A DNA stretch of 64,000 nucleotides from an uncultured Anaerolineales bacterium (lineage in GTDB: Bacteria > Chloroflexota > Anaerolineae > UBA7937 > B3-Chlor): contig CAYGAW010000186.1 of NCBI GenBank assembly GCA_964347945.1, forward strand, positions 13,865 through 77,864. Reading direction: 5' to 3'. The position numbers and the translations under genes were made by a program. The notes beneath the pieces are model-generated. The model was not told the origin of the DNA. It searched no databases and worked only from the letters and a program-made list of their open reading frames with translations. Numbering within the stretch: position 1 is the stretch's first letter; the number at the start of each line of letters is the position of its first letter. Of the stretch, positions 35,224 through 58,279 are shown piece by piece.

Positions 35224-37065
35224 ATGAGTCAATGTATCCCGAAGCGATGGAGAGTGCCGCTTGTGGGTGGCGCGCTGGTTGCGCTTGCCCTTCTCATTGG
35301 CGCGTGCGGCGCCCCAGCGCCGGAGCCCACCGCTGCACCCACGGGTGTCGCCACTGAGGCACCAGCCCCCACGGAGGCACCGACCGAGGCGCCGCCAGAG
35401 AATAATCCACCCGTTGTGCGGATAGAACTCCACAACGAGATGGAGGGGGTGGTCGACGAGGAAGGCGAACCCATTAGGGCCAGCGGTCTATCAAACGTTG
35501 GAGTGGGTACTTATGTCTTTCTCGAGGATGTGGCTTACGACCCCGACGAGGGCGACACGGTGACCACTGAGTGGGAGTTCACCCCAGCGGATGGCTCCTC
35601 GGCCGAACTGACCGAGGGCGAGTCCGCGTACTTCTTCGCCGACGTGGAAGGCAAGTACGACATCAAGCTCGTGGCGACAGATAGGAACGGCGCTTCTAGC
35701 GAGGCGGCCCTCACCGTCAATGCTGCGACCTACGTGGGTCTGGAGACCTGCGCCATGTGTCACGCTGACCAGGCTGAGGCGCAAGCGGAGACTGGCCACG
35801 CCCACATCTTCGCCGATGGAATCGACGGGATTGTCAGCGACCACTATGGAGAACGTTGCCTGGGGTGCCACACTGTCGGCCCGTGGGAAGGCGAGAACGG
35901 GGCCTTCGACGACGTGTGGGCGCAGACGGACTGGACTTTCCCTGAGACTTTGCAGGAGGGGAATTGGGACGCGTTGCAGGCGGACTATCCCGAGTTGGCG
36001 AATCTCGGCAATATCCAGTGCGAGAACTGCCATGGCCCGGGCAGCGCCCACATGGGCGACCCGGCGGGCATCGCCACGAGCCTTTCCGCGGAAACCTGTG
36101 GGTACTGCCACGATGCGCCAACCCACCACGTCAAGAACATGCAATGGGAACTCTCGGGCCATTCCGAGGAAGAGGCTCGTGCTTTCACCTATCCCATCGG
36201 CGAAGGTCGCGAGGGGTGCCAGCCGTGCCACTCTGGTGAGGCCTTCGTTGACATCGCAAATGGGATGGAGGAATTCCGCATGGGCTTTCAGACCGTTGCC
36301 TGCGCAGTATGTCACGATCCTCACAGCGCGGAGAACGAGGCCCAGTTGCGGATCTACGACACTGTCACACTACCCGATGGTACAGACGTTACGGACGCCG
36401 GTGCGTCGGCCACCTGCATGACGTGCCACAACGGTCGCAGAACTGCCGAAGAGGTCGAGGAAGACGACCCCAGCTGGCCGCACCACAGCACCGCGGCGGA
36501 GATGATCGCTGGCGTGGGTGGCTACACCTACGGAGACGAGATCGAGAACTCGCCTCACCAAGCCGTCGGGCTCGTTTGCGTGGAGTGCCACATGGCGGAG
36601 ACGCCGGGAATGGACGATGCGGGCACCCCTGACGACAGTGAGGACGACACTCCTCTGCCGGGTCACAACGAGATCGGCGAGCATACGTTCACCATGACCA
36701 GCGCGGACGGCGTGGAGTTGGTGAGTGCGTGCTCCGAGTGCCATGGTGAGATCGAGAGCTTCAACCGCGAAGCCGATGGCGACTACGACGGAGATGGCAC
36801 CGTCGAGGGCATCCGAGACGAGGTACAAGGCCTGCTGGATCTACTCCTTCAGGCGATCCAGGATGACGGCCCTGTGTGGTTAGGCCACCACCCGTATTGG
36901 GAAGAGGTGACCACGCAGGAGCAGAAGGCGGCCATCTACAACTATATGTTCGTGGCTCACGAGGGCAGTGAGGGCATTCACAACACAGCTCGTGCGGTTA
37001 TGTTGCTGCAGACTTCCTACCGGCAACTCACTGGGGAGGACGTGCCCGGGGCGGATCTCTACTAG
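35224..37065 (+). CDS. nonahaem c-type cytochrome lipoprotein with PKD-like domain
   Basis: Lipobox LLIGACG, TEAP-rich linker, PKD-like segment (DPDEGDTVTTEWEF...YDIKLVATDRNG), and 9 CXXCH motifs (CAMCH, CLGCH, CENCH, CGYCH, CQPCH, CAVCH, CMTCH, CVECH, CSECH). Confidence 0.9.
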   Translation: MSQCIPKRWRVPLVGGALVALALLIGACGAPAPEPTAAPTGVATEAPAPTEAPTEAPPENNPPVVRIELHNEMEGVVDEEGEPIRASGLSNVGVGTYVFLEDVAYDPDEGDTVTTEWEFTPADGSSAELTEGESAYFFADVEGKYDIKLVATDRNGASSEAALTVNAATYVGLETCAMCHADQAEAQAETGHAHIFADGIDGIVSDHYGERCLGCHTVGPWEGENGAFDDVWAQTDWTFPETLQEGNWDALQADYPELANLGNIQCENCHGPGSAHMGDPAGIATSLSAETCGYCHDAPTHHVKNMQWELSGHSEEEARAFTYPIGEGREGCQPCHSGEAFVDIANGMEEFRMGFQTVACAVCHDPHSAENEAQLRIYDTVTLPDGTDVTDAGASATCMTCHNGRRTAEEVEEDDPSWPHHSTAAEMIAGVGGYTYGDEIENSPHQAVGLVCVECHMAETPGMDDAGTPDDSEDDTPLPGHNEIGEHTFTMTSADGVELVSACSECHGEIESFNREADGDYDGDGTVEGIRDEVQGLLDLLLQAIQDDGPVWLGHHPYWEEVTTQEQKAAIYNYMFVAHEGSEGIHNTARAVMLLQTSYRQLTGEDVPGADLY

Positions 37066-37361
37066 ATCCTTTCGTTGGGCTCAGAGGTAGTTCCGCTTCA
37101 GCGGCCGTCACCAATAGAGCCAAGTGACGCCTACCAGCGCGCCGAGATCGGGAGGTCTCGGCGCGCAAACCTGCATGCACACTTCTGGAGGCGGTGCTCA
37201 CAGTTCCTCCCCTTCGACTGCGAACAGCTTGCGTACCACATGGTCAAGGGAGGGCACGCAGCCCTGCCTGTAGCGCGGCAGCAACAGCGACAAGAAAAGC
37301 CGTTGGCGTAGTCTTTCGCCGGTGCAGCATGCAGAAGGAGCCTGGGAGAGCAATCTCTCTT

Positions 37362-37405
37362 TGTTGGGGCGCAAGGTGCGCTCAATCCTGAGCTGCGCCC
37401 CAACA
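37362..37405. repeat. 12-bp perfect inverted repeat (hairpin) just upstream of the molybdopterin-subunit gene
   Basis: TGTTGGGGCGCA-20 nt-TGCGCCCCAACA. No U tract. Confidence 0.5.
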
Positions 37406-37452
37406 GGGGTATGATCACACGGAAGTATGTAAACCGGGACGGAGAACCACCT

Positions 37453-39843
37453 ATGAAGAAAGTCAGCAGACGCGCCTTCCTGAAGACCCTGGGGGCACTT
37501 ACCGCAGTCGGGGCTCTGGCCCGCTGTAGTGCGAGAGACCTGGTCTCGAATGCACTGCCTGGTGCCGTGGCACAGCAATTGCCGCCCCCACAGAATGAAA
37601 GGTGGGTGCGAAGTGTCTGCCAGCTATGTCCCGGCAACTGCGGCATCTCGGTCAGAGTCCTTGACGGACGAGCCGTGAAGATCGAAGGCAATCCGCTTCA
37701 TCCCATCAATCAGGGTGCCCTTTGCCCTAAGGGGGTGGCCGGACCGCAGATCCTCTACAATCCGGATCGCATCAGGGGACCTCTGAGAAGAGCGGGGGAC
37801 AGCTGGGAAAGCATATCGTGGAATGAAGCGGTTGATCTCGTCGTAGACAAGCTAGCAGAAATCCGGGACACAGGCAAGCCTCACACCGCCGTCTTCATGC
37901 ATGACGGCAGGCGAGGCCCCATGAGCGACCTCATCGCCAGATTCTGTCAGGCTTTTGGCACGCCCAACAACGTGGCAACCGATCACGTTAGGGCCGACGG
38001 CACTCCGCTGGCTCACTATTCGACGCTAGGCTGGAAGGACCACGCCGGCTATGACTGGGAGAACGTGAACTACCTTCTCTGCTTTGGCGGGTCGTTTCTG
38101 GAAGCCTGGCAACCGACGGTCAGACAACTCTGGGCCTACAGTCATATGCGCCGGGGACGGCCTGGTACCAGATCCCGGATAGTCCAGATTGAGCCGCGCT
38201 TGTCCGTCGCGGCGGCCAAGGCCGACGAGTGGATCCCCATCGTGCCGGGCACTGAAGGAGCTTTGGCCCTGGGGATCGCTCATGTGATTGTGGACCACGA
38301 ACTGTATGACAAGGGATTCGTCGAAGATCACACGCTTGGCTTTGAGGACTGGACGGACGAAGCCGGAGAGGAGCACCTTGGTTTTCGCACCCTGGTGTTG
38401 CGCGACTATCCGGTCGATGAGGTGGCTCGCATAACCGGAGTCTCCGCCAGCACCATCCGTCAACTGGCACGAGACTTCGTCGCGAGCAAGCCGGCCGTGG
38501 CCGCGGGAGACGCGAGCGAACACACCAATGGGCTGTTCAGCCAAATGGCGATTCAGTCCCTCAATGCCCTCGTGGGGAGCATCGGCGTGCCAGGGGGGAT
38601 GATAAGACAGCGCGACGTCCCGTTCGCGCCCTGGCCAGACCTGGTTCAAGATGACGTCGCCACCGCGGGTGTGGCTATGACCCGGCTCGACCGGGCCGAC
38701 ACCAGCGAATGGCCGCTCGCGGACAGCGCCTATCAGGCTTTCCCTGAGGCCGCTATGAATGGCGATCCCTACGAGGTGGGCATCCTCTTCTTGTACCAAG
38801 CGAATCCCCTCTATACTGGTCCCAGCGTCAGAGCCTTCAGGGAATCCTTCGACAGGATCCCGTTCATCGTCAGCTTCTCCCCCTTCCTGGACGAGAGCAC
38901 ACAGCAGGCGGACCTGATCCTGCCCGATTGCACTTATCTGGAGAAGTGGCTTTATTCTCCCATCGAGCCCAGCCTGGGGTATCCCGTGCTGGGGTTGGTG
39001 CAACCAGTCGTGGGCCCTCTTCACGAGACGGTGAACACGGGCGATGTCCTCCTTGAGATTGCTCGCAGGCTAGGCAGTACGATGGCCGCATCCTTCCCCT
39101 GGGCGGGCTTCACGGAGTTGATGCAGTTTAGGCTAAGAGGCGTTTTCGAAAGCGGACGGGGCCTAATGGTGCGAGGAACCTTCGAGGAGTTCTGGGATGA
39201 ACTGAGAGCCAGAGGGGTCTGGTATGATCCACCATATGAGTTTGAGCAATGGGAGCGGCTGTTTACCACCCCATCCGGACGGTTTGAGTTCTATTCTCAG
39301 CACCTGAGGGCCAAGTTGGAAACCCTGACCGAGCATGACCGCCAAGAGCTGGAAACGGTCTTGGACGATCTACGGCTCCAAGCTCGCGGGGACGAGCTGG
39401 TCATGCCGCACCACGAGCCTGCTCGGTACGTTGGCGACGAAGAGGAATACCCCTTCCACCTCAATGTCTATGAGTTGATGGCCTACTCTCAAGGAGGTGG
39501 GGCAAACTCGCCCTGGATGCAGGAACTATTCGGCTTGCACATCAAAGAGATGTGGGACAGCTGGATAGAACTCCATCCTCAGACGGCTCGAGAACTAGGC
39601 ATCTCCGACAGGGATGAGGTGTGGGTGGAGTCGCCAGTCGGCAGGATCAAGACCAAAGCCCGGCTCTACCCTGGCGCCATGCCCAACGTGGTGAACATGC
39701 CTCTGGGGCAGGGGCATTCAGCTCTTGGCCGGTGGGCAAAGGAGAGTGGCGCCAATCCCTATCAGATAATCGCGGATGAGTCGGACTTGTTAACTGGCCA
39801 ACCGGCCAGGCTGGCCACTCGAGTGAAAGTGTACAAGGTGTGA
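37453..39843 (+). CDS. Tat-exported molybdopterin-oxidoreductase-family subunit A1 (lacks the conserved Cys at the putative Mo-ligand position)
   Basis: Twin-arginine signal SRRAFLKTLG, FS0 motif CQLCPGNCG...CPKG, and molybdopterin-family blocks (VQIEPRLSVAAAKADEWIPIVPGTEGAL). Paralogous to 48603-51002. Confidence 0.9.
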   Translation: MKKVSRRAFLKTLGALTAVGALARCSARDLVSNALPGAVAQQLPPPQNERWVRSVCQLCPGNCGISVRVLDGRAVKIEGNPLHPINQGALCPKGVAGPQILYNPDRIRGPLRRAGDSWESISWNEAVDLVVDKLAEIRDTGKPHTAVFMHDGRRGPMSDLIARFCQAFGTPNNVATDHVRADGTPLAHYSTLGWKDHAGYDWENVNYLLCFGGSFLEAWQPTVRQLWAYSHMRRGRPGTRSRIVQIEPRLSVAAAKADEWIPIVPGTEGALALGIAHVIVDHELYDKGFVEDHTLGFEDWTDEAGEEHLGFRTLVLRDYPVDEVARITGVSASTIRQLARDFVASKPAVAAGDASEHTNGLFSQMAIQSLNALVGSIGVPGGMIRQRDVPFAPWPDLVQDDVATAGVAMTRLDRADTSEWPLADSAYQAFPEAAMNGDPYEVGILFLYQANPLYTGPSVRAFRESFDRIPFIVSFSPFLDESTQQADLILPDCTYLEKWLYSPIEPSLGYPVLGLVQPVVGPLHETVNTGDVLLEIARRLGSTMAASFPWAGFTELMQFRLRGVFESGRGLMVRGTFEEFWDELRARGVWYDPPYEFEQWERLFTTPSGRFEFYSQHLRAKLETLTEHDRQELETVLDDLRLQARGDELVMPHHEPARYVGDEEEYPFHLNVYELMAYSQGGGANSPWMQELFGLHIKEMWDSWIELHPQTARELGISDRDEVWVESPVGRIKTKARLYPGAMPNVVNMPLGQGHSALGRWAKESGANPYQIIADESDLLTGQPARLATRVKVYKV

Positions 39844-39867
39844 AGCGTCACGAGGTTGGAGGTTCCG

Positions 39868-40560
39868 ATGCCACGATGGGGAATGGCTATTGATCTGGAC
39901 AAGTGTGTAGGCTGTCAGGCTTGCAGCATGGCCTGCCGGGCTGAGAACAACGTGCCTTTCGCTGGCCCGGACGAAGCTCGCCTGGGACGACCCATTTTCT
40001 GGCACAAGGTAACAACCGAGGTAGAGGGTGAGTACCCGCACGTTCGGGCCCAGTTTGTCCCCCAGCCCTGCATGCACTGTGACGACCCTCCCTGCGTCGA
40101 GGTCTGCCCGGTCGGAGCCACTTATGCCACCGATGAAGGAGTGGTGGTCGTGGACTACGATGTCTGTATCGGATGCAGATATTGCGCTACGGCCTGTCCC
40201 TACGGTGCCCGAGCATTCAACTGGTACGAGCCACGATGGCCTGCGCCGTACAACCAGTATCTGAACCCCGACGTTCCGTTGCGTCCTAAGGGTGTGGTAG
40301 AGAAGTGCACTTTCTGTAGCCATCGTTTGCAGCGGGCCAAGCAAGACGCAGCCGCCCAAGAACGTGAATTGACGGACCCGGATCTGGTGTTGCTTCCTGC
40401 CTGCAACCAGATCTGCCCAGCCAAGGCTCGCTACTTTGGAGACCTGGAGGATCCGCAAAGTACGGTGTCGCGGCTGGCACGCAACCCGCGCGCTTTCCGC
40501 TTGCTCGAGGACTTAGGAACGGAGCCCATGGTCTACTACCTGGCAGAGGAGAAGAGTTAG
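39868..40560 (+). CDS. four-cluster [4Fe-4S] ferredoxin subunit (PsrB/NrfC/QrcC-like)
   Basis: CVGCQACSMAC..., CMHCDDPPCVEVCP, CIGCRYCATACP, CTFC...C..ICP cluster motifs. Confidence 0.9.
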   Translation: MPRWGMAIDLDKCVGCQACSMACRAENNVPFAGPDEARLGRPIFWHKVTTEVEGEYPHVRAQFVPQPCMHCDDPPCVEVCPVGATYATDEGVVVVDYDVCIGCRYCATACPYGARAFNWYEPRWPAPYNQYLNPDVPLRPKGVVEKCTFCSHRLQRAKQDAAAQERELTDPDLVLLPACNQICPAKARYFGDLEDPQSTVSRLARNPRAFRLLEDLGTEPMVYYLAEEKS

Positions 40561-41835
40561 ATGGAGGACATGGAGTCCGGCAAATACACCGCGTTGTTCA
40601 AGCCGCTGGTACATACGGGTAGAGGCTTCTATCCCGTGGCGGTCATCCTTGTGCTCATCATTGCCTGGGGAGTCGAAGCCTACGCCCGCCAGCTCACCCA
40701 TGGGCTTGGTGTGACTGGCCTGAATGAGCCAGTCTTCTGGGGAATGTACATCAGCAACACCGTCTTCTTCATCGCCATCAGCTACGGTGGCACTCTCACC
40801 TCCGCAATCCTGCGCATCCTTAACGCGGAGTGGCGAAAGCCCATCACAAGAGCCGCGGAGACAATAACTGTCTGTGCTCTGATAGTCGGGTCACTGAATA
40901 TCATCATTGACATGGGAAGGCCGGACAGGATTCCCTTACTCCTCATGCGGGGGCGTCTGCAATCGCCAATATTGTGGGACTTCTACGCCATCAGCCTTTA
41001 CTTGCTTTGTAGTGTCATATACCTCTACCTCCCGCTCATACCGGACTTGGCCATCTTGCGCGACAAGTATCCAAGTAGAAGGCGGCTGTACAGCTTCTTG
41101 ACCCTGGGCTGGACTGGCAGCGAGAAACAGAAGAGAAGACTGGACACTGCGATTGGTGTCATGGCCCTGCTGATGATTCCCATCGCTATCTCGGTACACA
41201 CGGTCTTGGCCTGGCTCTTTTCGATGACCATTCAGCCCATGTGGCATAGCACTCTCTTTGGCCCATACTTCGTAATGGGTGCAGTCTACAGTGGCATCGC
41301 CACGCTGATCATAGCCTTGGCTATCCTCAGGCGCGCATTGCGCTTGGAGAAGTATCTCAAGCCGGTCCATTTCAACAACCTCGGACTGTTGCTTCTCGTT
41401 CTGACATTCGTCTGGTTCTACTTCACTGCGGCTGAGTACCTGACCACCTACTACGGTAACGAACCTGCCCACATGGCCGTCTTCAACGCAAAGTTCAGTG
41501 GAGAGTTCGCGCCACTCTTCTGGCTCCAGGTGCTATTGTGCCTGGTGGTTCCCGTCGGCATCCTGGTTCCTCGCCGCACACGAACCATAGCCGGAACTGT
41601 CATCGCTGGTGTGGCTGTCAACATCGGCATGTGGCTGGAACGCGTCCTCATCGTGGTGCCCACGTTGACTCACCCCAGGACTCCTTACGGCTGGGAGATA
41701 CTCTATCGTCCAAGTGTGGTGGAGTGGGCGATAATGGCCGCATCTGCTGCTGCCATCGTACTCATGTTCATGTTCTTCACCAAGCTGTTCCCTATAGTCT
41801 CCATCTGGGAGATGGAGGAGGAGGCCGAGAAATGA
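40561..41835 (+). CDS. NrfD-family integral membrane quinone-interacting subunit (424 aa)
   Basis: Polytopic. Conserved with its paralogue at 46580-47899 (GVTGLN.P.FWG.YI.N.VFFI..S.GGTL.SAILRI..AEWR.P.TR.AE). Its size fits 10-TM members (QrcD/ActC/DsrP type). Confidence 0.9.
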   Translation: MEDMESGKYTALFKPLVHTGRGFYPVAVILVLIIAWGVEAYARQLTHGLGVTGLNEPVFWGMYISNTVFFIAISYGGTLTSAILRILNAEWRKPITRAAETITVCALIVGSLNIIIDMGRPDRIPLLLMRGRLQSPILWDFYAISLYLLCSVIYLYLPLIPDLAILRDKYPSRRRLYSFLTLGWTGSEKQKRRLDTAIGVMALLMIPIAISVHTVLAWLFSMTIQPMWHSTLFGPYFVMGAVYSGIATLIIALAILRRALRLEKYLKPVHFNNLGLLLLVLTFVWFYFTAAEYLTTYYGNEPAHMAVFNAKFSGEFAPLFWLQVLLCLVVPVGILVPRRTRTIAGTVIAGVAVNIGMWLERVLIVVPTLTHPRTPYGWEILYRPSVVEWAIMAASAAAIVLMFMFFTKLFPIVSIWEMEEEAEK

Positions 41836-42908
41836 AACGTCACGCTCTCTGTCTCAGCGCTCCCATACTGCTGGCCCTGGCTCTTGTCATCGCATTTCTC
41901 GGAGCCACCTCTGTCAGAGCTCAACCCCCGGTCCCCCATCCGGTGGAGAAGGGTGGGGCCTCGTTTGAAGACTGTCTGGGCTGCCACCGCGCAGGCATGG
42001 GTGACGCGCCCGTACCTGCCGACCATCGGCCCTATGACAATGAGACTTGCGCTGCTTGCCACGGTGCCGCCCGGCTTCAGCCTCCCAGTATCCCTCACCC
42101 GGAGGACACGGAGGGCACTCCGTATGAGAACTGCGTGGGCTGCCATAGTGCGGGGCTGGGTGACGCGCCTATCATGCCGGACGATCACCAAGAGCATGAG
42201 AACGATGATTGCGCTGTCTGCCATGGCGCCGAAGTCCTTGAGGGTCCTGTCATTCCGCACCCCGAAGAGAGGCAAGGTACGCCCTTCGAGGATTGCGTGT
42301 TCTGCCACAGCTCAGGACTTGTGAACGCACCTCTGATGCCCACCGACCATCAAGCGCATGACAACGAGGACTGCGGCCTTTGCCACGCGACCGCCGGCCT
42401 TGCGCCTCCCAGCATCCCCCACGTCCGTGAGCGGACTTGCGCGGATTGCCACCGGACGGGCGCGTACGGGGCGCCTCTCCTGCCCGCCGATCATCAGGCA
42501 CATGGTGATGAGGATTGTTTCCATTGCCACTCCACCACCGGGCTTTCGGCCCCTGTCGCCCCACCTCAGATGGAGGGACGCCGGGATTGCCTGTCGTGTC
42601 ACCACGACCCCCCGCCTGAAGGAGTACTAGCACCGGTGAGTTCCGACCACGACCACTCTGTGTACACTAGTGACACCTGCCTTAGTTGCCACAGACTCGC
42701 CTCTGAGACGGGCCTCATCGAGTCACCCACCAACCAGACGCCGGAGTGGCCCTCTGAAACCCCGACGGGCGAGGTTTCTTCGCTCTCCGCCCAGCTGAAA
42801 CTGGATGAAGACAACGGTGCGAGGGACGCTCTCATCCGGCGGTGGGCTACGATCATCGGCGTATCGGCGATCTGTGTGATCGTGTTCACGGTGCTCAGGA
42901 GAACCTAG
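41832..42908 (+). CDS. decahaem c-type cytochrome, five tandem di-haem modules, C-terminal TM anchor
   Basis: ATGA overlap with the NrfD gene, signal peptide, 10 CXXCH motifs arranged as 5 x (PHP.E....C..CH...G.APxxPxDH......C..CH), and a C-terminal hydrophobic helix. Confidence 0.9.
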   Translation: MKRHALCLSAPILLALALVIAFLGATSVRAQPPVPHPVEKGGASFEDCLGCHRAGMGDAPVPADHRPYDNETCAACHGAARLQPPSIPHPEDTEGTPYENCVGCHSAGLGDAPIMPDDHQEHENDDCAVCHGAEVLEGPVIPHPEERQGTPFEDCVFCHSSGLVNAPLMPTDHQAHDNEDCGLCHATAGLAPPSIPHVRERTCADCHRTGAYGAPLLPADHQAHGDEDCFHCHSTTGLSAPVAPPQMEGRRDCLSCHHDPPPEGVLAPVSSDHDHSVYTSDTCLSCHRLASETGLIESPTNQTPEWPSETPTGEVSSLSAQLKLDEDNGARDALIRRWATIIGVSAICVIVFTVLRRT

Positions 42909-43090
42909 GGCAAGAGGTTCAGTAGTCTGAATTCGCTGATGCGGACTTGCAGTCTCAGGTCTTCTGATCGCGGCGTGCTTGCCCAAGAAAGCGTCATTGT
43001 CGCCGGCTGTTGGGGTTGTCGCGGTCCGCATAGCCCCTCCAGACCTTTGAGCCCACATCAATCCTGATGCCTTTCGTGGGACATTATGCA

Positions 43091-43145
43091 AACCGTGAGT
43101 GCGAGGCCTCTGTTGAAAGACCCCTCTCCCTCGAGCCTCACGGTT
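43091..43145. terminator. long hairpin in the convergent gap between the two cytochrome clusters
   Basis: AACCGTGAG..CGAGG-22 nt-CCTCG..CTCACGGTT. The flanks are only weakly U-rich. Confidence 0.3.
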
Positions 43146-43222
43146 GCTTGCTGGCTCCTGAGACCGCCCAAGTGTGATGAACGGATGCGCCTCAACCTGT
43201 GGTGACGGCGCTACCTTGGGGG

Positions 43223-44230
43223 CTAGTCTCCAGGCTCATGACACAGCACGCAGACCTCATTGGCTCGGTCCGCGTGGTCCGCAGGGAACTGCGGTGCGCC
43301 GCCAACCCCGGCCTCATGACACGCCCTACAGTCCGTGCGGTTCTGTAGCGGATGCGGCACCACGGGTGCCATGGCCTCAGCGGGGGCAGTCTCCTCTGGC
43401 ACGACCACAGCATGGCAGACCCGGCAGACCTCATTGGCTCGGTCAGTGTGATCGGCAGGAAACTGGGGTGCCTCCCCAACTCCAGTCTCGTGGCAAAGCC
43501 GACAGTCGGCGCGGTTCTCCACCGGGTGCGGCACCTCAGGGGCTATGGTCTCGGCGCGGGGAGTCTCCTCTGGCTCCGACACAGCGTGGCAGACTTGGCA
43601 GACCTCATTAGCTCGGTCCGCGTGGTCAGGTGGGAACTGAGGAGCGTCGCCTACTCCAGTCTCGTGGCAGAGTCGGCAGTCGGTACGATCCTCCAAGGGA
43701 TGCGGCACTTGAGAGGGCATCTCGCCCAGCACCGGCGTTTCTTCAGGAACCGAGATGCCAGGGGCGGCCAGGTGACACGTCTGACAGATGTCCACGGGCA
43801 GCCCCCTGTGATTCTCCGGGATGCGAGGGGCATAGGCGATTCCCACCTTGTGGCACATCAGGCATTCCTCGCGGCCCACTAGATCATGCGTAATGTCTGG
43901 TGGGGCGAGGGTGGAAGGAACTGGCTCTGGAAGCAGTGCATGGCACGTCGAGCACAGCTCCGCCGGTCCCTCATGATCACTGTCCGCAGGCATGGGAGGT
44001 GCTTCTACGGCTCCGACGGGATGACACAGAAGGCAATCCCTCCGCGCGCCCTCCACGTCGTGAGGGATAGGAGGCGGCACCTCAGTCAACAGCGGCACAG
44101 TGGTCGGCGGTGGAGAGGCCGCTGGTGGCTGAGGCATCAGGGCCTCCCCCATCGTGGGCAAGCAGCCGGCTGAACCCAAGGCCAGTGACAACACAAGTAA
44201 GCCCCGTGCTATGCAGCGCGCCCTCCTCAC
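43223..44230 (-). CDS. decahaem c-type cytochrome lipoprotein, five tandem di-haem modules
   Basis: GTG 44230 (GTGA overlap with the upstream stop, GGAGGTGA SD), lipobox LALGSAGC, and 10 CXXCH motifs. The last three modules are near-identical. Confidence 0.85.
   Translation of the reverse strand: MRRARCIARGLLVLSLALGSAGCLPTMGEALMPQPPAASPPPTTVPLLTEVPPPIPHDVEGARRDCLLCHPVGAVEAPPMPADSDHEGPAELCSTCHALLPEPVPSTLAPPDITHDLVGREECLMCHKVGIAYAPRIPENHRGLPVDICQTCHLAAPGISVPEETPVLGEMPSQVPHPLEDRTDCRLCHETGVGDAPQFPPDHADRANEVCQVCHAVSEPEETPRAETIAPEVPHPVENRADCRLCHETGVGEAPQFPADHTDRANEVCRVCHAVVVPEETAPAEAMAPVVPHPLQNRTDCRACHEAGVGGAPQFPADHADRANEVCVLCHEPGD
43226..43745 (-). repeat. intragenic tandem repeat, 174-bp (58-aa) period, about 3 copies
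   Basis: The string cagacctcatt(g/a)gctcggtc recurs at about 43251, 43425 and 43599. The protein modules are VPHPLEDRTDCRLCHETGVGDAPQFPPDHADRANEVCQVCH, VPHPVENRADCRLCHETGVGEAPQFPADHTDRANEVCRVCH and VPHPLQNRTDCRACHEAGVGGAPQFPADHADRANEVCVLCH. Confidence 0.8.
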
Positions 44231-45549
44231 GAGTTCACCTCCTCGCGTCTCCGCTGGATCAGAATCACTCCCATTAAAGCCGCTATTGCCACCAGCGCTC
44301 CCCCAAGCCAGGCCCACGGAATTCCTCCCAGACCTGGCGGCTCGATTGGGGGTTGAGTGGGAATGGGAATCGGTGTGGGCACCGGCGTAGGCGGCAGCGC
44401 TGGCGTGACCGTCGGGACCGGGGTTGATGGCACCACCTCCAAGCCGAGCACCTGTGCTGCCCATTCCGGGGTCTTATCAATGTGACAGAGATTGCAGGCG
44501 TTAGGCATGGCCTGTTGTCCCCCATAGCGGATGGTGGTCACCGGGTCCGGGCCCCAGAAGGTGTGGCTGTGAATGTCAAAGTTGTACTCGGCTGTTGACG
44601 CCTCGGCCAGAGCGGGCATGTGGCAATCAGTGCAGAAAGCGCTCTGGGTCTGCATGTAGGGCACGTGGGCCTTCAGGTCTCGCTTCTCCTCATGGCAGAT
44701 GAGGCAGCGATGATTGCCGACCCATCGGGTCTGATGAGCCGTTTCCCCGCGGCTATGGGACACATGACAAAAGACGCAGCTCACGCCGGCCTCGTGGGGG
44801 CTCTTCTTCCAGTCGAGATACTCTTGATGGTGGGCCTTAGAGGAACCATCGGGCCAGAAATGCTCCTCGTCCGTGGCGGCTATGAAGGCATCGTCCAGCT
44901 TGAGTGGGCCGCCGGGCTGGAAGTCAATGGGAAACTCATAGACACCCGTGGGATCCGTGCCTCTGCTGTGGCATTGGCCGCAGATCTCGGTCTGGGCCTG
45001 GAACTCCTCCAAGGCTGGGTTGACGATCGCGGCCCGCTCTCCGGCCAGCGCCACGTGCTCGCTGCCCGGTCCGTGGCAAGCCTCGCACTGCACTCCAGCT
45101 TCGGCCCATGTTTCGGTCTCGGCGTCAAAGCCCGTCGTGTGGCAGCCTGCGCAGTAGCGCGAGTATGGTCGATCCAACCAGTCTTCCGGGTGGTAAGGCA
45201 CCCACTCGCCGGGAGACACGTTCCACTGGGAAGGCAGCACGTACAACTCCCCATCGACTTCGGTCAGGTAGCGCTGGCTAAACTGGCCGCCCACGACGTA
45301 CTCCACGTCATCGCCACTGAAAGTGAGGTCGGGATCGCTAGAGGTGAAGTCACCCACAATAGTCTCCTCGTTCGCAGGGCGGAGCATCTTGGCGTGCCAG
45401 GTCTGTTGGAATGACCCATGCTTGGCTCCGTGACACGGGGCGCACGTGTCTGACCCGACGTACACCGGCCCCTGCGCCGTGGCCGTCGCGAAGGTCAGCA
45501 GGACGGGGATAACCGCTATGAGGCCAACAACTACCACTACCTTCTTCAT
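44227..45549 (-). CDS. octahaem c-type cytochrome with PT-rich linker and C-terminal TM anchor
   Basis: Signal peptide MKKVVVVVGLIAVIPVLL..ATAQG and 8 CXXCH motifs (CAPCH, CAGCH, CEACH, CGQCH, CVFCH, CLICH, CTDCH, CNLCH). The start ATG overlaps the upstream stop (TGATG). Confidence 0.9.
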   Translation of the reverse strand: MKKVVVVVGLIAVIPVLLTFATATAQGPVYVGSDTCAPCHGAKHGSFQQTWHAKMLRPANEETIVGDFTSSDPDLTFSGDDVEYVVGGQFSQRYLTEVDGELYVLPSQWNVSPGEWVPYHPEDWLDRPYSRYCAGCHTTGFDAETETWAEAGVQCEACHGPGSEHVALAGERAAIVNPALEEFQAQTEICGQCHSRGTDPTGVYEFPIDFQPGGPLKLDDAFIAATDEEHFWPDGSSKAHHQEYLDWKKSPHEAGVSCVFCHVSHSRGETAHQTRWVGNHRCLICHEEKRDLKAHVPYMQTQSAFCTDCHMPALAEASTAEYNFDIHSHTFWGPDPVTTIRYGGQQAMPNACNLCHIDKTPEWAAQVLGLEVVPSTPVPTVTPALPPTPVPTPIPIPTQPPIEPPGLGGIPWAWLGGALVAIAALMGVILIQRRREEVNS

Positions 45550-46529
45550 CAATCCTCCTCGGCGAGCGAGTTGCCCCCGAAAAGCGCTTTGCAGGTCGGG
45601 CACAGGCCTAGTCTCTGTCGAACCCCTTCATTGACGGCAGCCATTCTTTCCTGTAGCTTGTCCACTAGCACAGCGGACACTGTGGGCTCACCGCACCGTG
45701 GGCAGATGACCAGGGGTGAGTTCACAAGAACCACGCGCCCACCTTCGAAGCGAGCTGAGCGCTCCACTATCACTGCCTGCTCAGGACACCATTGCTGGCA
45801 GGCAGCACAGCCATCACAAACTTCGACGCGAAAGACAAGCTGCATTTCGCCCCTGTCCCGGGTCAGTCTCAAGGCCCCGGGTAAACAAACTCGGGCGCAG
45901 AGCCCGCACAGCGTGCACTCTGGGCCAAGAGCCACGGTCCATCCATCGCTGTCGCCAATCGAGCTTGGTGCTGACGCCCGCAGCCAACTCCTAAGCTCGG
46001 CCATGTCTTCCGCTACTTGCTCCCAGGCTCGCTGCGCCAGGCCTGCGTAGAAGGGATGGGCTTCGCCAGCGAGCAATCTCTTGCAGAAGCTGGGCAGCCA
46101 GCGCCCGAGGTGTTCCCGCAAGAACGATTCCTCCTGGCGCAGGTAGGCCTCTGCCCTGTCCACATCGTTCTCCTCCCATGCCTCGGCTTCCTTCCTGGCT
46201 AGATACGACATGAACTCCAGCTCCACAGCCACATGGTCCGGCAGCAACTGATCTTCTGGGCCCAGTCCCTCCTCCGCATAGCGCTCGCGGACTGCCAGAG
46301 TGCACTCGCCCATCACCTGGCCCTCGCGGTAGACGGACTCGCAGGGATGAGCTACCGGCCTACCTGGCCCGACGAAGAGGCGGGTGTACTCGGCCTCCAG
46401 CCCTTCCTCAGGCCCGGCAAGACCCTGAGCTAGGCTCGCGTAACTTCGGCTACGAGCCCGCGCTGTACTGACGTCCATGCTGTTCTTCGGATACGAGAGA
46501 TACTCTACTGATAGCTGTTCCCCCGTCAT
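45549..46529 (-). CDS. TorD/DmsD-like chaperone domain fused to a 2x[4Fe-4S] ferredoxin and a Cys4 ribbon
   Basis: N-terminal YASLAQGL..P...L..EYTRLFVGPG...HPCESVY...PDHVAVELEFMSYL (TorD family), then CTLCGLCARVCLP and CDGCAACQQWCP, then CPRCG...CPTC. Confidence 0.8.
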   Translation of the reverse strand: MTGEQLSVEYLSYPKNSMDVSTARARSRSYASLAQGLAGPEEGLEAEYTRLFVGPGRPVAHPCESVYREGQVMGECTLAVRERYAEEGLGPEDQLLPDHVAVELEFMSYLARKEAEAWEENDVDRAEAYLRQEESFLREHLGRWLPSFCKRLLAGEAHPFYAGLAQRAWEQVAEDMAELRSWLRASAPSSIGDSDGWTVALGPECTLCGLCARVCLPGALRLTRDRGEMQLVFRVEVCDGCAACQQWCPEQAVIVERSARFEGGRVVLVNSPLVICPRCGEPTVSAVLVDKLQERMAAVNEGVRQRLGLCPTCKALFGGNSLAEED

Positions 46530-46579
46530 TCCTCAACCTGTCCCAGCAAGGGCAGAGGAAGCGCTGTGCCGATCAGATT

Positions 46580-47899: not shown

Positions 47900-48544
47900 C
47901 TACAAGCCCTCCTTCAGATAGAACACGCGTGGCTCTGTACCCAGGTCCTCGAGTAGGCGAACAGCCCGAGGACTACGAGCCAACTGCGACACCTCACTGG
48001 CGGGGTCGTCCAGGTCACCAAAGTAGCGAGCCCCAGTCGGGCAAGCCTGGTTGCACGCTGGGATGGGCAGACCCTCATCCAGGCGATGGACACAGAAAGT
48101 GCACTTTTCCACTATGCCTCTTGGCCGCAGCGGGACGTCAGGGTTCTGATAGCGGTCCATGCCCTCCGGCCATTCTCCGTCATACCACGTGAAATAGCGG
48201 ACTCCGTAAGGGCAGGCCACCGTACAGTAGCGGCATCCTATGCATCGCTCATAGCGCTGCAGCACCAACCCGTCCTCCTCCCGCTTGTAGGTCGCCCCCA
48301 CAGGGCACACCTTTACACAGGGTGGGTTCTCACAATGGAAGCACGGTCGGGGAATGATACTGGCGTCCACATGAGGATACTCCCCTTCAATGTCGAAAAG
48401 GACCTCGTTCCAGAAAATGGCGCGGCCCAACTCCGCCTCGTCGGGACCAATGAAGGGCACGTTGTTCTCCGCCCGACACGCCGCAGTGCAGGATTGACAG
48501 CCGATGCACTTGTCCAAATCGATCACCATCGCCCACTGTGGCAT
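47900..48544 (-). CDS. four-cluster [4Fe-4S] ferredoxin subunit, paralogue of 39868-40560
   Basis: MPQWAMVIDLDKCIGCQSCTAAC..., CFHCENPPCVKVCP, CIGCRYCTVACP, CTFC...CNQACP. Confidence 0.9.
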   Translation of the reverse strand: MPQWAMVIDLDKCIGCQSCTAACRAENNVPFIGPDEAELGRAIFWNEVLFDIEGEYPHVDASIIPRPCFHCENPPCVKVCPVGATYKREEDGLVLQRYERCIGCRYCTVACPYGVRYFTWYDGEWPEGMDRYQNPDVPLRPRGIVEKCTFCVHRLDEGLPIPACNQACPTGARYFGDLDDPASEVSQLARSPRAVRLLEDLGTEPRVFYLKEGL

Positions 48545-48602
48545 CATACCCTCCAAGGACCGACGTCACGACAGGTAGAAGAAGGTCTGTCAAGTCGGTC
48601 CG

Positions 48603-51002
48603 CTATGCCTTGTCTATCCTCACCATCGTCGCGAAGGGCGCCAACGCGCCGGTCAGCGGGGTAGTCTGATTGGCGATCAGCCAGTTGGGATTGACACCCC
48701 GATTCTCGGACCATCGGCCATAGGCTCTGTGGCCCAGCTCGAACGGTATGTTAACCACGTCGGGACGGGCACCTGAGTATAGCACAGCCCGTACTTTGAT
48801 CCTCTCTCCAAGCGGCGATTCCACCCACACCCAGTCATCGTCGGCGATGCCCAGAGCCCGAGCCACGCCAGGGTTGATCTCCACCCAAGAATCCCATTTG
48901 CGGTTGACGTGTAACCCCAGCATCTCCTGCAAATGAGGTAAGTTGGCCCCGCGCCCCTCGGCATGAGCCATGAGCTTGTAGGTGTTGAGAAAGAACGGAT
49001 ACCCCTTGTGGTCGCCCACCGTCTCGGGCGGCTCGTAGTGTGGCAGGTACACCTCGTCACCCCGAGCTTGCACCCCTAACTCATCCAATACTCTCTCTAG
49101 GTCACCGTTGGCGACCCTCGCCAATTCGTCCCTCAAAGTTTGCGAGTAAAACTCGAACCTTCCCGATGGCGTGGCCAGCACCCGCTCCCAGTCGCCAAGG
49201 CGATAGGACGCGTCGGACCAGACGCTCCGCCGCGCGAATTCCTCCCAGAAGAACTCGAACTCAGTAGCAGTTATGTCTCCCTGCTCGGATAGCCAAAGGC
49301 CACTAGTCCGGTACTGCACCACCTCGGCGAAGCTGCCCCACGGAAAGGATTCAGACACCGGCTCTCCCAACCTCCGAGCCAACTCCAAGAGCACATCTCC
49401 AGTGTGCCGCGTGTCGAACAACGGAGCTACTACCGGTAGCCCCAAGCCCACCACTGGATAGCCCAGACTGGGGGGCGGCTCCACGTCCTGCAACCGCTCC
49501 AGATAAGTGTGGTCGGGAAGGATCAGATCCGCGTGGGCAGTACTGTCGTCCAGAAAAGGCGAGAAGCTCACTATGAAGGGCACCTTCTCAATGGCCTCGT
49601 GAAAGCGAGCTACCTCTGCACTGGAAAAGAGGGGGTTCGTGTAGTATAGAAGCAGAGCGTTGACCGGATACGGGTCATCACTCGCAATGCTGTCCGGCAG
49701 CTGTTGATAGACGCCGCAGGCGAGAGGATAACGGCGTGTGCCAGCAAAATCAATCCGAGATTGGGCGCGTCCCTCCTCGGATACAGGATCCGGGGCGAGG
49801 TCGGGCCATGGCAGGAAGGGCGCATCCCTCTGGGTCAGCACCCCTCCAGAAACGTCGATGGATCCAACCAAGGCGTTGAGGCCGTGCACGGCCATCTGAT
49901 TGAACAAGCCGTTGCTCCACATGCTGATGCCCCGGTCGCCAATGGCCACCGCCGGCCTGGTCGCAGCGAACTCGCGAGCAATGCGAGTGATCGTCTCGGC
50001 TGGCACTCCGGTGATGGCCTCTACTTGGGAGGGAGCGTAGTCCCGTAGCACGAGCGTCTTGAAGCCCATATGCTGGGCACCATCCTCGTCGGTCCAGTCC
50101 TCGAAGCCAAGAGTGTGCTGCGTCACAAAGCCCTCATCATACAACTCTTCATTGATGATAACGTAGGCTATGCACAACGCCAGGGCACCATCCGTACCGG
50201 GTCGAATGGGTACCCACTCGTCAGCCTTGGCCGCGGTGATGGAGAAACGGGTGTCCACCTGGACCATTCGAAGCCGCTCGTGGGCTCGGCCCCGGCGCAT
50301 GTACCCGTAGGCCTTTGCGTTGCGCACGGTGGGCCGCCATGCTTCCAAGAAAGAGGCGCCGAAAGACAGGAGGTACCTCGTGCGCTCCCAGTCGTAGCCC
50401 AGGAAGCTCCGCTGACCCTGGCTCAGCCAATGAGCCATCTCCACGGTCGAAGCGCAGATGCTGTTGTGCGTAATACGGTTAGGGGTGCCATACGCGTCGC
50501 AGAAGCGAGAAATCAGGCCTTCCATCTGTCCGAGGACACGGCCGGTCATAAGGACCATGGTGTGGGAGTCCCCGCGGTCACGCAATTCGCCCAACCTGCT
50601 CGCCACCTCTTCGATGGCCTCGTCCCAACTGATTGATTCCCACCGCCCGTCGCCTCGGTTCCCCACCCGACGCAGCGGGCCCTGGGTGCGGTCGGGATCG
50701 TAAAGCACCTGCAAGCCAGCCTGTGCCTTGGGGCAGATCTTGCCGTTGTTGAGGGGATGCAGGGGATTGCCTTCGATCTTGACCGCCCGGCCATCCACCA
50801 CCCTCACCAAGAGGCCACAGCCAGCCTGACATTGCTGACAGATAGTGGACCGCCAGGCCTCTTGACGATCCTGTGCAGCTCCCTGTTCCTCACGAGTCAA
50901 AGCGCGCAGTATGGTCGCTTTGGCTGCTGCCTGGTAGACAGCGACCGCCGCGGTACCTGCCCCCGCCACCTTGAGAAAAGCCCGTCTGCTAAGTTTCGTC
51001 AC
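48603..51002 (-). CDS. Tat-exported molybdopterin oxidoreductase catalytic subunit A2 (Cys ligand context retained)
   Basis: GTG start, twin-arginine signal SRRAFLKVAG, FS0 motif CQQCQAGCG...CPKA, and GTPNRITHNSICAST (H-x-S-x-C as in polysulfide/thiosulfate-reductase-type enzymes). Confidence 0.9.
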   Translation of the reverse strand: MTKLSRRAFLKVAGAGTAAVAVYQAAAKATILRALTREEQGAAQDRQEAWRSTICQQCQAGCGLLVRVVDGRAVKIEGNPLHPLNNGKICPKAQAGLQVLYDPDRTQGPLRRVGNRGDGRWESISWDEAIEEVASRLGELRDRGDSHTMVLMTGRVLGQMEGLISRFCDAYGTPNRITHNSICASTVEMAHWLSQGQRSFLGYDWERTRYLLSFGASFLEAWRPTVRNAKAYGYMRRGRAHERLRMVQVDTRFSITAAKADEWVPIRPGTDGALALCIAYVIINEELYDEGFVTQHTLGFEDWTDEDGAQHMGFKTLVLRDYAPSQVEAITGVPAETITRIAREFAATRPAVAIGDRGISMWSNGLFNQMAVHGLNALVGSIDVSGGVLTQRDAPFLPWPDLAPDPVSEEGRAQSRIDFAGTRRYPLACGVYQQLPDSIASDDPYPVNALLLYYTNPLFSSAEVARFHEAIEKVPFIVSFSPFLDDSTAHADLILPDHTYLERLQDVEPPPSLGYPVVGLGLPVVAPLFDTRHTGDVLLELARRLGEPVSESFPWGSFAEVVQYRTSGLWLSEQGDITATEFEFFWEEFARRSVWSDASYRLGDWERVLATPSGRFEFYSQTLRDELARVANGDLERVLDELGVQARGDEVYLPHYEPPETVGDHKGYPFFLNTYKLMAHAEGRGANLPHLQEMLGLHVNRKWDSWVEINPGVARALGIADDDWVWVESPLGERIKVRAVLYSGARPDVVNIPFELGHRAYGRWSENRGVNPNWLIANQTTPLTGALAPFATMVRIDKA

Positions 51003-56264: not shown

Positions 56265-56298
56265 CCCACTCATACCCCTTCTTCGCTAGGAAACAACA

Positions 56299-58278: not shown

Positions 58279-58279
58279 A

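Follow-up and report, generated by a model that had tools for sequence, protein, structure and literature searches.

Two convergent molybdoenzyme-like modules with tethered multihaem cytochromes in an Anaerolineales genome: candidate quinone-to-surface electron conduits

Sediments, anode biofilms and digesters harbour abundant Anaerolineae, a group rich in multihaem cytochromes. The question addressed here is the route by which respiratory electrons of Chloroflexota reach minerals, electrodes and partner cells; to our knowledge, no quinol-oxidising entry point to such a route has been defined for Anaerolineae. The subject is a locus of 11 genes at positions 35224-51002 of a stretch of 64,000 nucleotides from an uncultured Anaerolineales bacterium (assembly GCA_964347945.1, contig CAYGAW010000186.1, positions 13,865 to 77,864 of the forward strand), which is referred to below as the window. 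The locus is comprised of two gene clusters, each encoding a module of a molybdopterin-enzyme-like subunit (A), an iron-sulfur subunit (B) and a membrane subunit of the NrfD type (C), and of four multihaem cytochrome genes distributed over the two clusters.

Gene content and layout of the locus

The initial annotation described two convergent paralogous modules with four multihaem cytochromes, and all 11 open reading frames (ORFs) are present without interruption at the coordinates and on the strands then assigned to them (Table 1). The 37 CXXCH motifs counted at that time are recovered as 9, 10, 10 and 8 motifs in cyt9, cyt10a, cyt10b and cyt8, respectively. The window contains no further multihaem ORF; the only other ORF with CXXCH motifs encodes a histidine kinase and has two of them. 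The A, B and C subunits are paralogous between the clusters, as had been stated, with identities of 54% (A1/A2), 62% (B1/B2) and 52% (C1/C2). The facing decahaem genes cyt10a and cyt10b, described as homologous and about 315 bp apart, encode proteins that are 35% identical and are separated by 314 bp (42909-43222).

Within the clusters, neighbouring genes abut at 40560/40561 and 47899/47900 and overlap at 41832-41835 and 44227-44230 (4 bp) and at 45549 (1 bp), which is the arrangement expected for operons. The counts obtained from promoter and terminator scans are not above those for shuffled sequence, and claims on transcription units are confined to the gene overlaps. No hairpin was found between the convergent ends of the clusters. 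A terminator-like hairpin is present at 37053-37069, at the end of cyt9, which may on that account be a separate transcription unit. A reading of the locus as horizontally transferred, or as part of a mobile element, was rejected because the G+C content is even over the locus and the genes that flank it are housekeeping genes. An Rfam scan of the window returned two tRNAs only, both far from the locus.

Table 1. Genes of the two convergent clusters (window coordinates)
Gene	Coordinates	Strand	Length (aa)	Features
cyt9	35224..37065	+	613	9 CXXCH, lipoprotein
A1	37453..39843	+	796	Tat-exported (twin-arginine translocation), Mo-bisPGD-enzyme fold (bisPGD, bis-pyranopterin guanine dinucleotide), FS0 Cys4 intact
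B1	39868..40560	+	230	Pfam Fer4_11, 16 Cys
C1	40561..41835	+	424	Pfam NrfD, ActC-type, about 10 transmembrane helices
cyt10a	41832..42908	+	358	Decahaem, C-terminal transmembrane anchor
cyt10b	43223..44230	-	335	Decahaem, weak lipobox
cyt8	44227..45549	-	440	Octahaem, OcwA-like
TorD-ferredoxin	45549..46529	-		Pfam Nitrate_red_del and 2x[4Fe-4S] ferredoxin domain
C2	46580..47899	-	439	Pfam NrfD, ActC-type
B2	47900..48544	-	214	Pfam Fer4_11, four [4Fe-4S] motifs
A2	48603..51002	-	799	Tat-exported, Mo-bisPGD-type, FS0 intact, Cys ligand

Subunits of the modules and their cytochromes

The C subunits were originally likened to the large NrfD subunits of alternative complex III (ACIII) in preference to the small PsrC, and this likeness is borne out. 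The top solved relatives of both C1 and C2 are the four ActC chains of ACIII, the matches spanning 380-400 residues (best matches 6F0K_C, E 1.1e-59, for C1 and 6BTM_C, E 1.2e-67, for C2). The hydropathy profiles of the C subunits have about 10 hydrophobic segments, and PsrC (2VPW_C) is not detected at E<0.01 with either of them. When the 23 residues of the ActC quinol site and ion half-channels (Calisto and Pereira, PMC8076601) are mapped through the phmmer alignment, 18 are found to be kept in C1 and 19 in C2. The N-side proton half-channel is kept at 12 of its 13 positions in C1 and at all 13 in C2, and the pair equivalent to E394/R395 is present in both. The NCBIfam model of QrcD gives 51 and 42 bits against a cut-off of 570.

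Among solved structures, B1 is closest to the C-terminal domain of ActB (6F0K_B, E 1.7e-55), followed by ArrB (E 1.4e-43) and then by PsrB; for B2 there is little to choose between ActB (E 4.1e-50) and ArrB (E 2.8e-49). An ActB-like insertion is present in B1 and not in B2. The likeness to Qrc and ACIII that was first proposed for the modules extends to the sequences of the B subunits, the nearest being the Fe-S domain of ActB, and not to their clusters. Both B1 and B2 have CIGCRYC where ActB has CIGTRYC, and this motif together with the 16 cysteines indicates four full [4Fe-4S] motifs, as in PsrB and ArrB, in place of the [3Fe-4S] cluster found in ActB and QrcC (PMC8076601, Table 1). A Tyr between the cluster cysteines, Y113, is essential in QrcC (PMC13059093), and its equivalent is conserved in B1 and B2. 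QrcC is also the top NCBIfam match of B1, at 270 bits against a cut-off of 400. The B subunits have no twin-arginine motif, and B1, which is without a signal peptide, is presumably exported together with A1.

The A subunits show a different affinity. The Pfam scan, which covered A1, matched Molybdop_Fe4S4, Molybdopterin and Molydop_binding, with a TAT_signal match below the Pfam cut-off; A2 was placed by NCBIfam, by a PDB search and by its identity to A1. Both proteins start with the twin-arginine motif SRRAFLK, and an alternative ATG start of A1 lies at 37411. Their closest solved relative is ArrA (6CZ7; E 1.5e-88 for A1 and 3.3e-99 for A2), and the N-terminal domain of ActB matches them at E 1e-16 to 1e-19 only (3e-17 for A1). 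The AlphaFold2 (AF2) model of A1, with a predicted local distance difference test score (pLDDT) of 88.5, has template-modelling scores of 0.85 to ArrA and 0.74 to PsrA. All four FS0 cysteines are present in A1 and A2; the QrcB and canonical ActB1 references used here are without FS0. The likeness to Qrc and ACIII suggested early on for the modules does not extend to the A subunits.

None of the named families accommodates the A subunits. The NCBIfam scores of A1 and A2 are 321 and 401 bits for ArrA (cut-off 1600), 287 and 370 bits for PhsA (cut-off 694), and 309 and 301 bits for QrcB (cut-off 440). Membership of ArrA, PhsA, QrcB/C/D, DsrO/P, TtrA and DmsA was considered for the locus and rejected, each NCBIfam score being under its cut-off. 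The motifs (R/K)GRY and XGRGWG, which lie near the active site of ArrA and ArxA, respectively (PMC6549141), are absent, and in their place A1 has DGRR and A2 has TGRV. A neighbour-joining tree was built on 374 N-terminal columns, with references of about 400 residues each from Leu et al. 2020 (Data Set S1B). Bootstrap values of 83% and 73% separate the A family from Arr/Arx and from Psr/Phs, respectively, and it is grouped with the 'Unk_2' protein ASW-3_00132 of Methanoperedenaceae; the deep nodes have less than 30% bootstrap, and the tree serves to keep the family out of the Arr/Arx and Psr/Phs clades but does not fix its sister group. Placement by hidden Markov model (HMM) and tree, the check proposed in the initial annotation, thus puts neither A1 nor A2 inside a characterised clade. 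By these comparisons the A subunits are ArrA/PsrA-like, not ActB1- or QrcB-like, and belong to no named family.

The two A subunits differ from each other at the Mo ligand. At the position of the ligand Cys in the HSSVC motif of ArrA, A2 has HNSIC, a canonical H-x3-C motif whose Cys (codon TGC at 50454-50456) aligns with that of ArrA, and in A1 the sequence is DHVR, the ligand column being occupied by Arg (codon AGG at 37990-37992). The same Arg is found in four A1 orthologues from independent assemblies (P0002-P0005, 72-84% identity). The core was taken as the 43 columns conserved both in eight enzymes of the Arr, Arx, Psr and Phs types and in four Cys-bearing members of the family; A2 keeps 42 of them and A1 keeps 35, the values for the references being 31 (Geobacter ActB1), 28 (QrcB) and 19 (canonical ActB1). 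The eight losses in A1 include the His and the Cys of the motif and the Asp of PGTD. A1 shares the change of PGTD to PGTE with the references for QrcB and Geobacter ActB1 and with many family members that lack the ligand; in the reference for canonical ActB1 the residue is Ile. The Cys-bearing members have 130 invariant columns, of which A1 keeps 117; its predicted fold is also complete, and A1 is not a decayed protein. Loss of the pterin from A1 was sought in these conservation data and is not claimed, as eight core columns are lost but most of the invariant ones are kept.

Judged from its residues, A1 has probably lost catalysis and is probably a non-catalytic Fe-S/scaffold subunit, by analogy with the corresponding subunits of Qrc and ACIII. 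In A2, Mo/W-bisPGD is probably still bound, and a soluble substrate may undergo a catalytic half-reaction there. A TorD-type chaperone is encoded in cluster 2 only. Its gene product, TorD-ferredoxin, matches Pfam Nitrate_red_del (E 3.7e-33) and Fer4_7 and is related to the NarJ/DmsD-type chaperones; the NCBIfam model DMSO_red_II_cha gives 68.5 bits, which is below the cut-off. The protein has no signal peptide and is therefore taken to be cytoplasmic. The modules, which had been described as paralogous, are not equivalent, being distinguished by the Cys and the chaperone of A2 and the Arg of A1.

All four cytochromes have predicted Sec signals with lipid or transmembrane anchors. Each module contains one transmembrane-anchored cytochrome (cyt10a, cyt8) and one lipoprotein (cyt9, cyt10b), carried on Pro/Thr-rich linkers. 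Lipobox or transmembrane anchors had been claimed from the start, and tethering does extend to all four proteins; the C-terminal transmembrane anchor of cyt8 had, however, been overlooked. No CXXCK motif occurs in any of the four.

The larger cytochromes, cyt8 and cyt9, are related to OcwA (structure 6I5B), which serves a Gram-positive electrogen as terminal reductase in the cell wall (PMC6703420), and to OmhA (structure 6QVM; PMC9250108); both relatives are characterised surface reductases from Gram-positive metal reducers. In cyt8, a signal peptide, a Pro/Thr-rich linker and the transmembrane anchor accompany the haem domain, and its sequence matches OcwA at E 1.7e-21 and OmhA at E 5.9e-11. 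The match of cyt8 to OcwA and OmhA is full-length and that of cyt9 is partial, at about 22% identity. The AF2 model of cyt8 (pLDDT 71) has OcwA and OmhA as its only significant fold neighbours, with E 2e-15 and a template-modelling score of 0.53-0.55 over 437 columns against 6I5B. Weak HMM matches to NrfH and cytochrome c552 are also found in cyt8, which belongs to a family of 1462 members at E<=1e-15. The order of elements in cyt9 is a lipobox (LIGA|C, where the bar marks the cleavage site), a linker rich in Pro, Thr, Ala and Glu, a PKD domain and a haem domain. The PKD-like domain was noted in the initial annotation and can be retained as a marginal match (K319L-like_PKD, 27.5 bits, cut-off 27). 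The haem domain matches Pfam Mtrc-MtrF_II-IV_dom, the haem domain of MtrC/MtrF, with 45.4 bits against a cut-off of 30, and the sequence match of cyt9 to OcwA 6I5B has E 1.9e-14.

The two decahaem proteins are each built of five dihaem repeats. In cyt10a these lie between an N-terminal signal peptide and a C-terminal transmembrane anchor; cyt10b has a signal peptide and a Pro-rich linker, and its lipobox (LGSAG|C) is weaker than that of cyt9. No relative of cyt10a was found among the sequences of solved structures. Thirteen homologues of cyt10a are found at E<=1e-10, and the closest of them are on contigs that also carry A1-type genes. In five distant homologues (P0126-P0130, 551-580 aa), multihaem repeats are fused to a b-cytochrome domain of the NarI type (PF02665); this type is a candidate for a different quinol:haem module.

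Related loci and genomic neighbourhood

Species-representative genomes were scanned for the A family. The 79 best loci, all from metagenome-assembled genomes (MAGs), belong to Anaerolineae and other Chloroflexota, Thermodesulfobacteriota, Methylomirabilota, Acidobacteriota, Aminicenantes, Bipolaricaulia and one Thermoplasmata archaeon. FS0 is kept in nearly all of them, and it is the ligand column that splits the family: in nearly all clades that have multihaem genes alongside, the residue found there is G, N, W, L, E, S, T or R. In the 75 loci with readable flanks, adjacency of a multihaem gene was scored as a same-strand cytochrome with at least four haems. Such a gene is adjacent in 64 of the 65 loci without Cys and in 5 of the 10 with Cys (Fisher p = 8e-5, not corrected for phylogeny). 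The search of related genomes for synteny that had been called for has thus revealed a linkage of cytochromes to A-B-C that is conserved across many phyla.

The convergent layout of two modules is found in two other MAGs, L081 and L010. In L081, A1 is 72% identical to that of the window, the decahaem, octahaem and TorD-ferredoxin genes have the same lengths as those of the window, and the equal-length counterpart of cyt10b is at the same position; in L010, A2 is 80% identical. A TorD-ferredoxin orthologue occupies the same position in both MAGs. Tandem pairs of a ligand-bearing and a ligand-less module occur in L009, L011, L032 and L080. In L080 (6324-10347), the closest relative, the genes A1 (84% identity)-B1-C1-decahaem are followed by a tandem third A (765 aa)-B-C set and not by a convergent cluster 2, so that the pairing partner varies among close relatives. 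The third A is apparently P0006, which has Ser in the ligand column.

Three other groups of loci deserve description. A sister clade of seven loci (L004, L006, L008, L014, L016, L024 and L034) has the canonical ligand motif HSSIC(A/E/S)DG and the gene order A-B-C-TorD, and no multihaem gene is found in the operon of any of the seven. Its hosts are Methylomirabilota, Bipolaricaulia, Anaeromyxobacter, Chloroflexota, a deltaproteobacterial MAG and a Thermoplasmata archaeon, and its A subunit is probably a true reductase. In Thermodesulfobacteriota/Syntrophaceae (L042, L044, L057, L058, L061 and L068), a highly conserved array of the order MHC4-B-C, then MHC5-A-B-C-MHC4-MHC4 (MHC, multihaem cytochrome) is present. 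The A subunits of these arrays have Trp or Leu in the ligand column, no TorD gene is nearby, and the arrays resemble Qrc/ACIII-like complexes. Thirteen Chloroflexota loci (L047, L051-L053, L056, L060, L066, L067, L071, L072, L074, L075 and L079) have the strictly conserved motif S(L/M)N(V/I)(A/E)A, with Asn in the ligand column, an MHC4 gene upstream and, where the contig extends far enough, a TorD gene downstream. The conserved Asn and the chaperone suggest that the active site of this clade is unusual but functional.

Adjoining the locus in the window, an operon for system I cytochrome c maturation (ccm) at 55836-61408 on the plus strand encodes CcmE, CcmF, CcmA, CcmB and CcmC; it was counted in favour of the conduit reading given below. 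Between ccmF and ccmA lies a gene for a protein of 335 aa (58280-59287) with a sub-threshold CarboxypepD_reg-like match. Upstream of cluster 1, the product of a 94-aa ORF (34184-34468, plus strand) is 51% identical to about the first 74 residues of the intact CcmE (55836-56264), a part that takes in the transmembrane helix and the beginning of the domain, and diverges thereafter; the ORF has the look of a ccmE paralogue that was truncated, or of a ccmE remnant. The gene-poor 2 kb before cyt9 also contain an 81-aa ORF (33571-33816, plus strand) that by eye resembles CspA-like cold-shock proteins.

On the far side of A2, about 960 bp without an obvious gene separate it from a 124-aa ORF (51966-52340, minus strand), which has no Pfam match and by eye is receiver-domain-like; an 11/12 match to a sigma-70-like promoter lies ahead of it at 52384-52355. 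A LuxR-type response regulator (52505-53173, minus strand) follows the histidine kinase (53170-55626, minus strand). The kinase has HAMP, two GAF, HisKA_3 and HATPase domains, and its two CXXCH motifs are in the extracytoplasmic sensor domain, which matches Pfam Mcp40H-20_sensor with 28.4 bits against a cut-off of 27. Kinase and regulator may constitute a haem-based redox sensor that controls the neighbouring cytochrome clusters. Farther away, a HycI-type hydrogenase maturation protease (123-863, plus strand) lies at the edge of the window, just upstream of which there may be a NiFe hydrogenase. The prolipoprotein diacylglyceryl transferase Lgt is encoded at 5127-6065 (plus strand), which fits the presence of lipoprotein cytochromes. 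In a protein of 649 aa (29848-31797, plus strand), an N-terminal transmembrane segment is accompanied by weak matches to DUF4350 and ABC_transp_aux and by long stretches rich in Glu and Asp.

Electron-conduit reading, alternatives and known systems

In make-up, as far as homology can tell, the modules are hybrid, combining an A subunit of the ArrA fold with FS0, a B subunit with four [4Fe-4S] motifs and a C subunit of the ActC type. The reading that we favour, at a probability of about 0.5, is that they are electron conduits leading from the quinone pool to the surface of the cell, and that A2 may be catalytic as well. It draws on the homology of cyt8 and cyt9 to OcwA and on the membrane tethering of all four cytochromes; the residue states of A1 and A2, the ActB-like B subunits, the adjacency of cytochromes in many phyla and the convergent layout shared with L010 and L081 were also counted for it. 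A conduit of this kind was put forward in the initial annotation, and the ActC-type C subunits, the OcwA homologues and the tethering speak for it; the general idea is not new, having been proposed in earlier reports on related clusters (PMC9386147, PMC3534657, PMC7327174).

The genes present, their homologies, the states of key residues and the conservation of synteny are observed, and from them we infer the cofactor content, subunit contacts, electron direction, energy coupling and physiological acceptor as follows. Chloroflexota are regarded as single-membraned (monoderm), and each cluster would provide one complex, seated on the outside of the cytoplasmic membrane. The 10-helix ActC-type subunit, with the proton half-channels of ACIII, would bind menaquinol or menaquinone. 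Electrons would pass from the quinol through the Fe-S chain to the decahaem wire, from there to the OcwA-like cytochromes with eight or nine haems, and finally to an extracellular acceptor, for example Fe(III), Mn(IV), humics, an electrode or a partner cell. The flow may be reversible, the opposite direction being that of Qrc, and may be coupled to protons through the ActC channels. In module 1, A1 would act as an Fe-S/scaffold subunit; in module 2, Mo/W-bisPGD would be kept and a catalytic reaction would be possible.

Several observations weigh against such conduits. The loss of pterin and of catalysis in A1 is not proven, in view of its conservation, its complete fold and the precedent of arsenite oxidase: ligand-less members of the family keep 100-126 of the 130 invariant columns (77-97%; one outlier keeps 80, or 62%), the AF2 model of A1 has the complete ArrA-like fold, and enzymes of the Aio type have no protein ligand to Mo, so that a missing ligand is no proof of a missing cofactor. 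Cytochromes of the OcwA family reduce nitrite and hydroxylamine in vitro (PMC6703420), and a soluble substrate is therefore possible. In comparisons with the sequences of solved structures, which covered cyt10a, cyt8 and cyt9, no likeness to ActA or QrcA was seen. The close relatives are all from MAGs, and neither quinone biosynthesis genes nor the structure of the cell envelope can be seen within the 64-kb window.

A less probable alternative is that both modules are quinol-dependent Mo/W-bisPGD reductases or oxidases of the Psr/Phs/Arr/Srr kind that act on a soluble compound of S, As, Se or Sb, the cytochromes being an extra entry or exit for electrons, as in Aio and Arx. The complete ArrA fold with FS0 would be expected of such an enzyme, and so would the Cys ligand, the near-complete core (42/43 columns) and the TorD chaperone of A2; the invariant columns retained by ligand-less relatives and the TorD genes of the clade with Asn in the ligand column point the same way. 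The Cys-bearing A-B-C-TorD sister clade without cytochromes looks like a classical reductase, and relatives were earlier annotated as putative arsenate-type or unknown complex iron-sulfur molybdoenzyme (CISM) reductases (PMC3903129; PMC7327174). A soluble-substrate enzyme is difficult to reconcile with the Arg at the ligand site of A1 and the loss of the motif His, and with a ligand column whose hypervariability (G, N, W, L, E, R, S, T) falls exactly in those clades that are linked to cytochromes. The absence of (R/K)GRY and XGRGWG, equivalog HMM scores far under their cut-offs and a C subunit of the ActC and not the PsrC type also speak against it, and 37 tethered haems exceed its need.

The direction might instead be inward, like that of Qrc: electrons from Fe(II), a cathode, reduced humics or a syntrophic partner would enter at the cell surface and reach menaquinone by way of the cytochromes and the Fe-S chain, with the cytoplasmic uptake of protons conserving energy. 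The N-side half-channel of the ActC/QrcD type, nearly complete in C1 and complete in C2, would allow this, and Qrc carries out electrogenic quinone reduction with such an arrangement (PMC6303296; PMC13059093). Among Chloroflexota, Ardenticatena maritima, which has the surface heptahaem ARMA_0580, shows both anodic and cathodic electron transfer (PMC5808234), and ACIII-like molybdopterin clusters expressed in Fe(II) oxidisers are cited in PMC8105010. Inward flow is nevertheless unlikely, given that no Fe(II) oxidase of the Cyc2, MtoA or Fox type is encoded in the locus and that OcwA and OmhA were characterised as reductases (PMC6703420; PMC7829351). Direction cannot be read from sequence, and inward flow is a variant of the favoured conduit and not a separate machine. 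Still less can be said for the OcwA-like cytochromes being the catalyst of an NrfABCD-like quinol:oxyanion reductase for nitrite, hydroxylamine, sulfite or tetrathionate, to which A would be accessory. This very improbable arrangement can draw on the membership of OcwA in the NrfA/ONR/OTR structural family and its reduction of nitrite and hydroxylamine in vitro (PMC9250108; PMC6703420), on modules of the NrfCD type that feed such cytochromes (PMC8076601, Table 1) and on the weak NrfH and cytochrome c552 matches of cyt8. It would have to do without CXXCK in any of the four cytochromes and would leave the two decahaem wires and the conserved A subunits unexplained; the cyt8 model, being of moderate confidence (pLDDT 71), is unsuited to a check of the active site.

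The quinone-to-surface conduit favoured here can be extended in a more speculative way. The A family could be a living intermediate between catalytic molybdoenzymes of the Psr/Arr type and the cofactor-less scaffolds of Qrc and ACIII, namely a proton-coupled quinone module of the ActC/ActB2 type on which an A subunit with FS0 and the ArrA fold has been kept. In Anaerolineae there would be obligate pairs of a Cys-bearing, chaperone-dependent A2 and a ligand-less A1 that form, with about 37 tethered haems, a bidirectional circuit between quinone pool, Mo site and cell surface. This extension is tentative and more apt to fail than to hold; if true, it would mean a new class of extracellular-electron-transfer complex for bacteria without an outer membrane. 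On the conduit reading itself, the locus is a concrete and conserved candidate for the entry point, with an ActC-type, probably proton-coupled, quinone module joined to OcwA-like cytochromes. The loss of the ligand together with the acquisition of cytochromes, FS0 being kept, as seen over 75 loci, offers a testable picture of how Qrc and ACIII may have arisen from molybdoenzymes. Genes of this kind should not be annotated as polysulfide, thiosulfate or arsenate reductases in metagenomic surveys of sulfur and arsenic metabolism.

Among known systems, ACIII shares with the modules the 10-helix C subunit of the ActC type, a B subunit nearest to the C-terminal domain of ActB, with the ActB-like insertion in B1, and the position of the complex, which in the modules is a predicted one, on the outer face of the membrane. 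In ACIII, ActA and ActE supply one cytochrome with a transmembrane-type and one with a lipid-type anchor, and each module likewise has one transmembrane-anchored and one lipid-anchored cytochrome. The references for this comparison are the complexes of Rhodothermus, Flavobacterium and Roseiflexus (PDB 6F0K, 6BTM and 6LOD). ACIII differs in that ActB is a fusion of two domains, ActB1 and ActB2, the first of which is without FS0 or Mo cofactor, whereas A and B are here encoded by separate genes and FS0 is present, and in that it has one [3Fe-4S] and three [4Fe-4S] clusters, in contrast to the four [4Fe-4S] motifs of B. It also has a pentahaem ActA, ActD, a monohaem ActE and, as a second NrfD-like subunit, ActF; each cluster here has a single NrfD gene, no genes for further transmembrane proteins of the complex are found in either, and cyt10a, cyt8 and cyt9, the three cytochromes compared with sequences of solved structures, match no ACIII chain. 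ACIII has 6 haems compared with 18-19 per module, and module 2 is accompanied by the TorD chaperone.

QrcABCD is similar in the order of genes for a cytochrome, a MopB-like protein, an Fe-S protein and NrfD, in the Tyr corresponding to Y113 of QrcC and in the absence of the Mo ligand, a feature shared by A1. However, QrcB lacks both FS0 and the ligand, whereas FS0 is present in both A subunits and the ligand is missing only in A1; the modules have no homologue of the hexahaem QrcA, and the host of Qrc is a sulfate reducer, which is not the case here as far as the window shows. The Arr, Psr and Phs enzymes (6CZ7, 2VPW) have the four-domain A fold, FS0, Tat export, the H-x3-C motif seen in A2 and a B subunit with four [4Fe-4S] clusters in common with the modules. 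They differ in that the HMM scores reach 20-55% of their cut-offs, C is of the ActC type where they have the 8-helix PsrC, the locus here also encodes four multihaem cytochromes, A1 is without the Cys ligand and (R/K)GRY is absent. OcwA of Thermincola potens and OmhA of Carboxydothermus ferrireducens resemble cyt8 and cyt9 in sequence, and cyt8 also in predicted fold, and apparently share with them an outward reach. They are bound to the cell wall or S-layer, whereas cyt8 and cyt9, with 8 and 9 haems, are tethered to the membrane by a transmembrane helix or lipid, and the genes of the latter lie in operons with a molybdoenzyme-like complex.

Clusters related to the present ones have been reported several times. 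The 'Unk_2' locus of Methanoperedenaceae ASW-3 (PMC7327174), to which ASW-3_00132 belongs, encodes an A of the same family with A-B-C and a chaperone, but no cytochromes. The 'ACIII-like' clusters of MBNT15 SHF-111, which have ActA-, ActD-, ActE- and ActF-like genes, were proposed to be quinol oxidases for Fe(III) reduction (PMC9386147). An undescribed enzyme of the dimethyl sulfoxide reductase family, encoded near cytochromes, was noted in Zixibacteria RBG-1 and in OP1 (PMC3903129) and is possibly related. NrfCD-cytochrome modules were noted in Melioribacter (PMC3534657), and in Pyrodictium delaneyi membrane molybdopterin complexes are more abundant on ferrihydrite than on nitrate (PMC8105010). 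None of the papers on MBNT15, ASW-3 and RBG-1 describes the convergent pair, a Cys/Arg asymmetry or OcwA-like partners. What the present locus adds to these systems is the hybrid make-up of the modules, the link between loss of the Mo ligand and adjacency of cytochromes, the Cys/Arg asymmetry of the paired A subunits and their OcwA-like, membrane-tethered partners.

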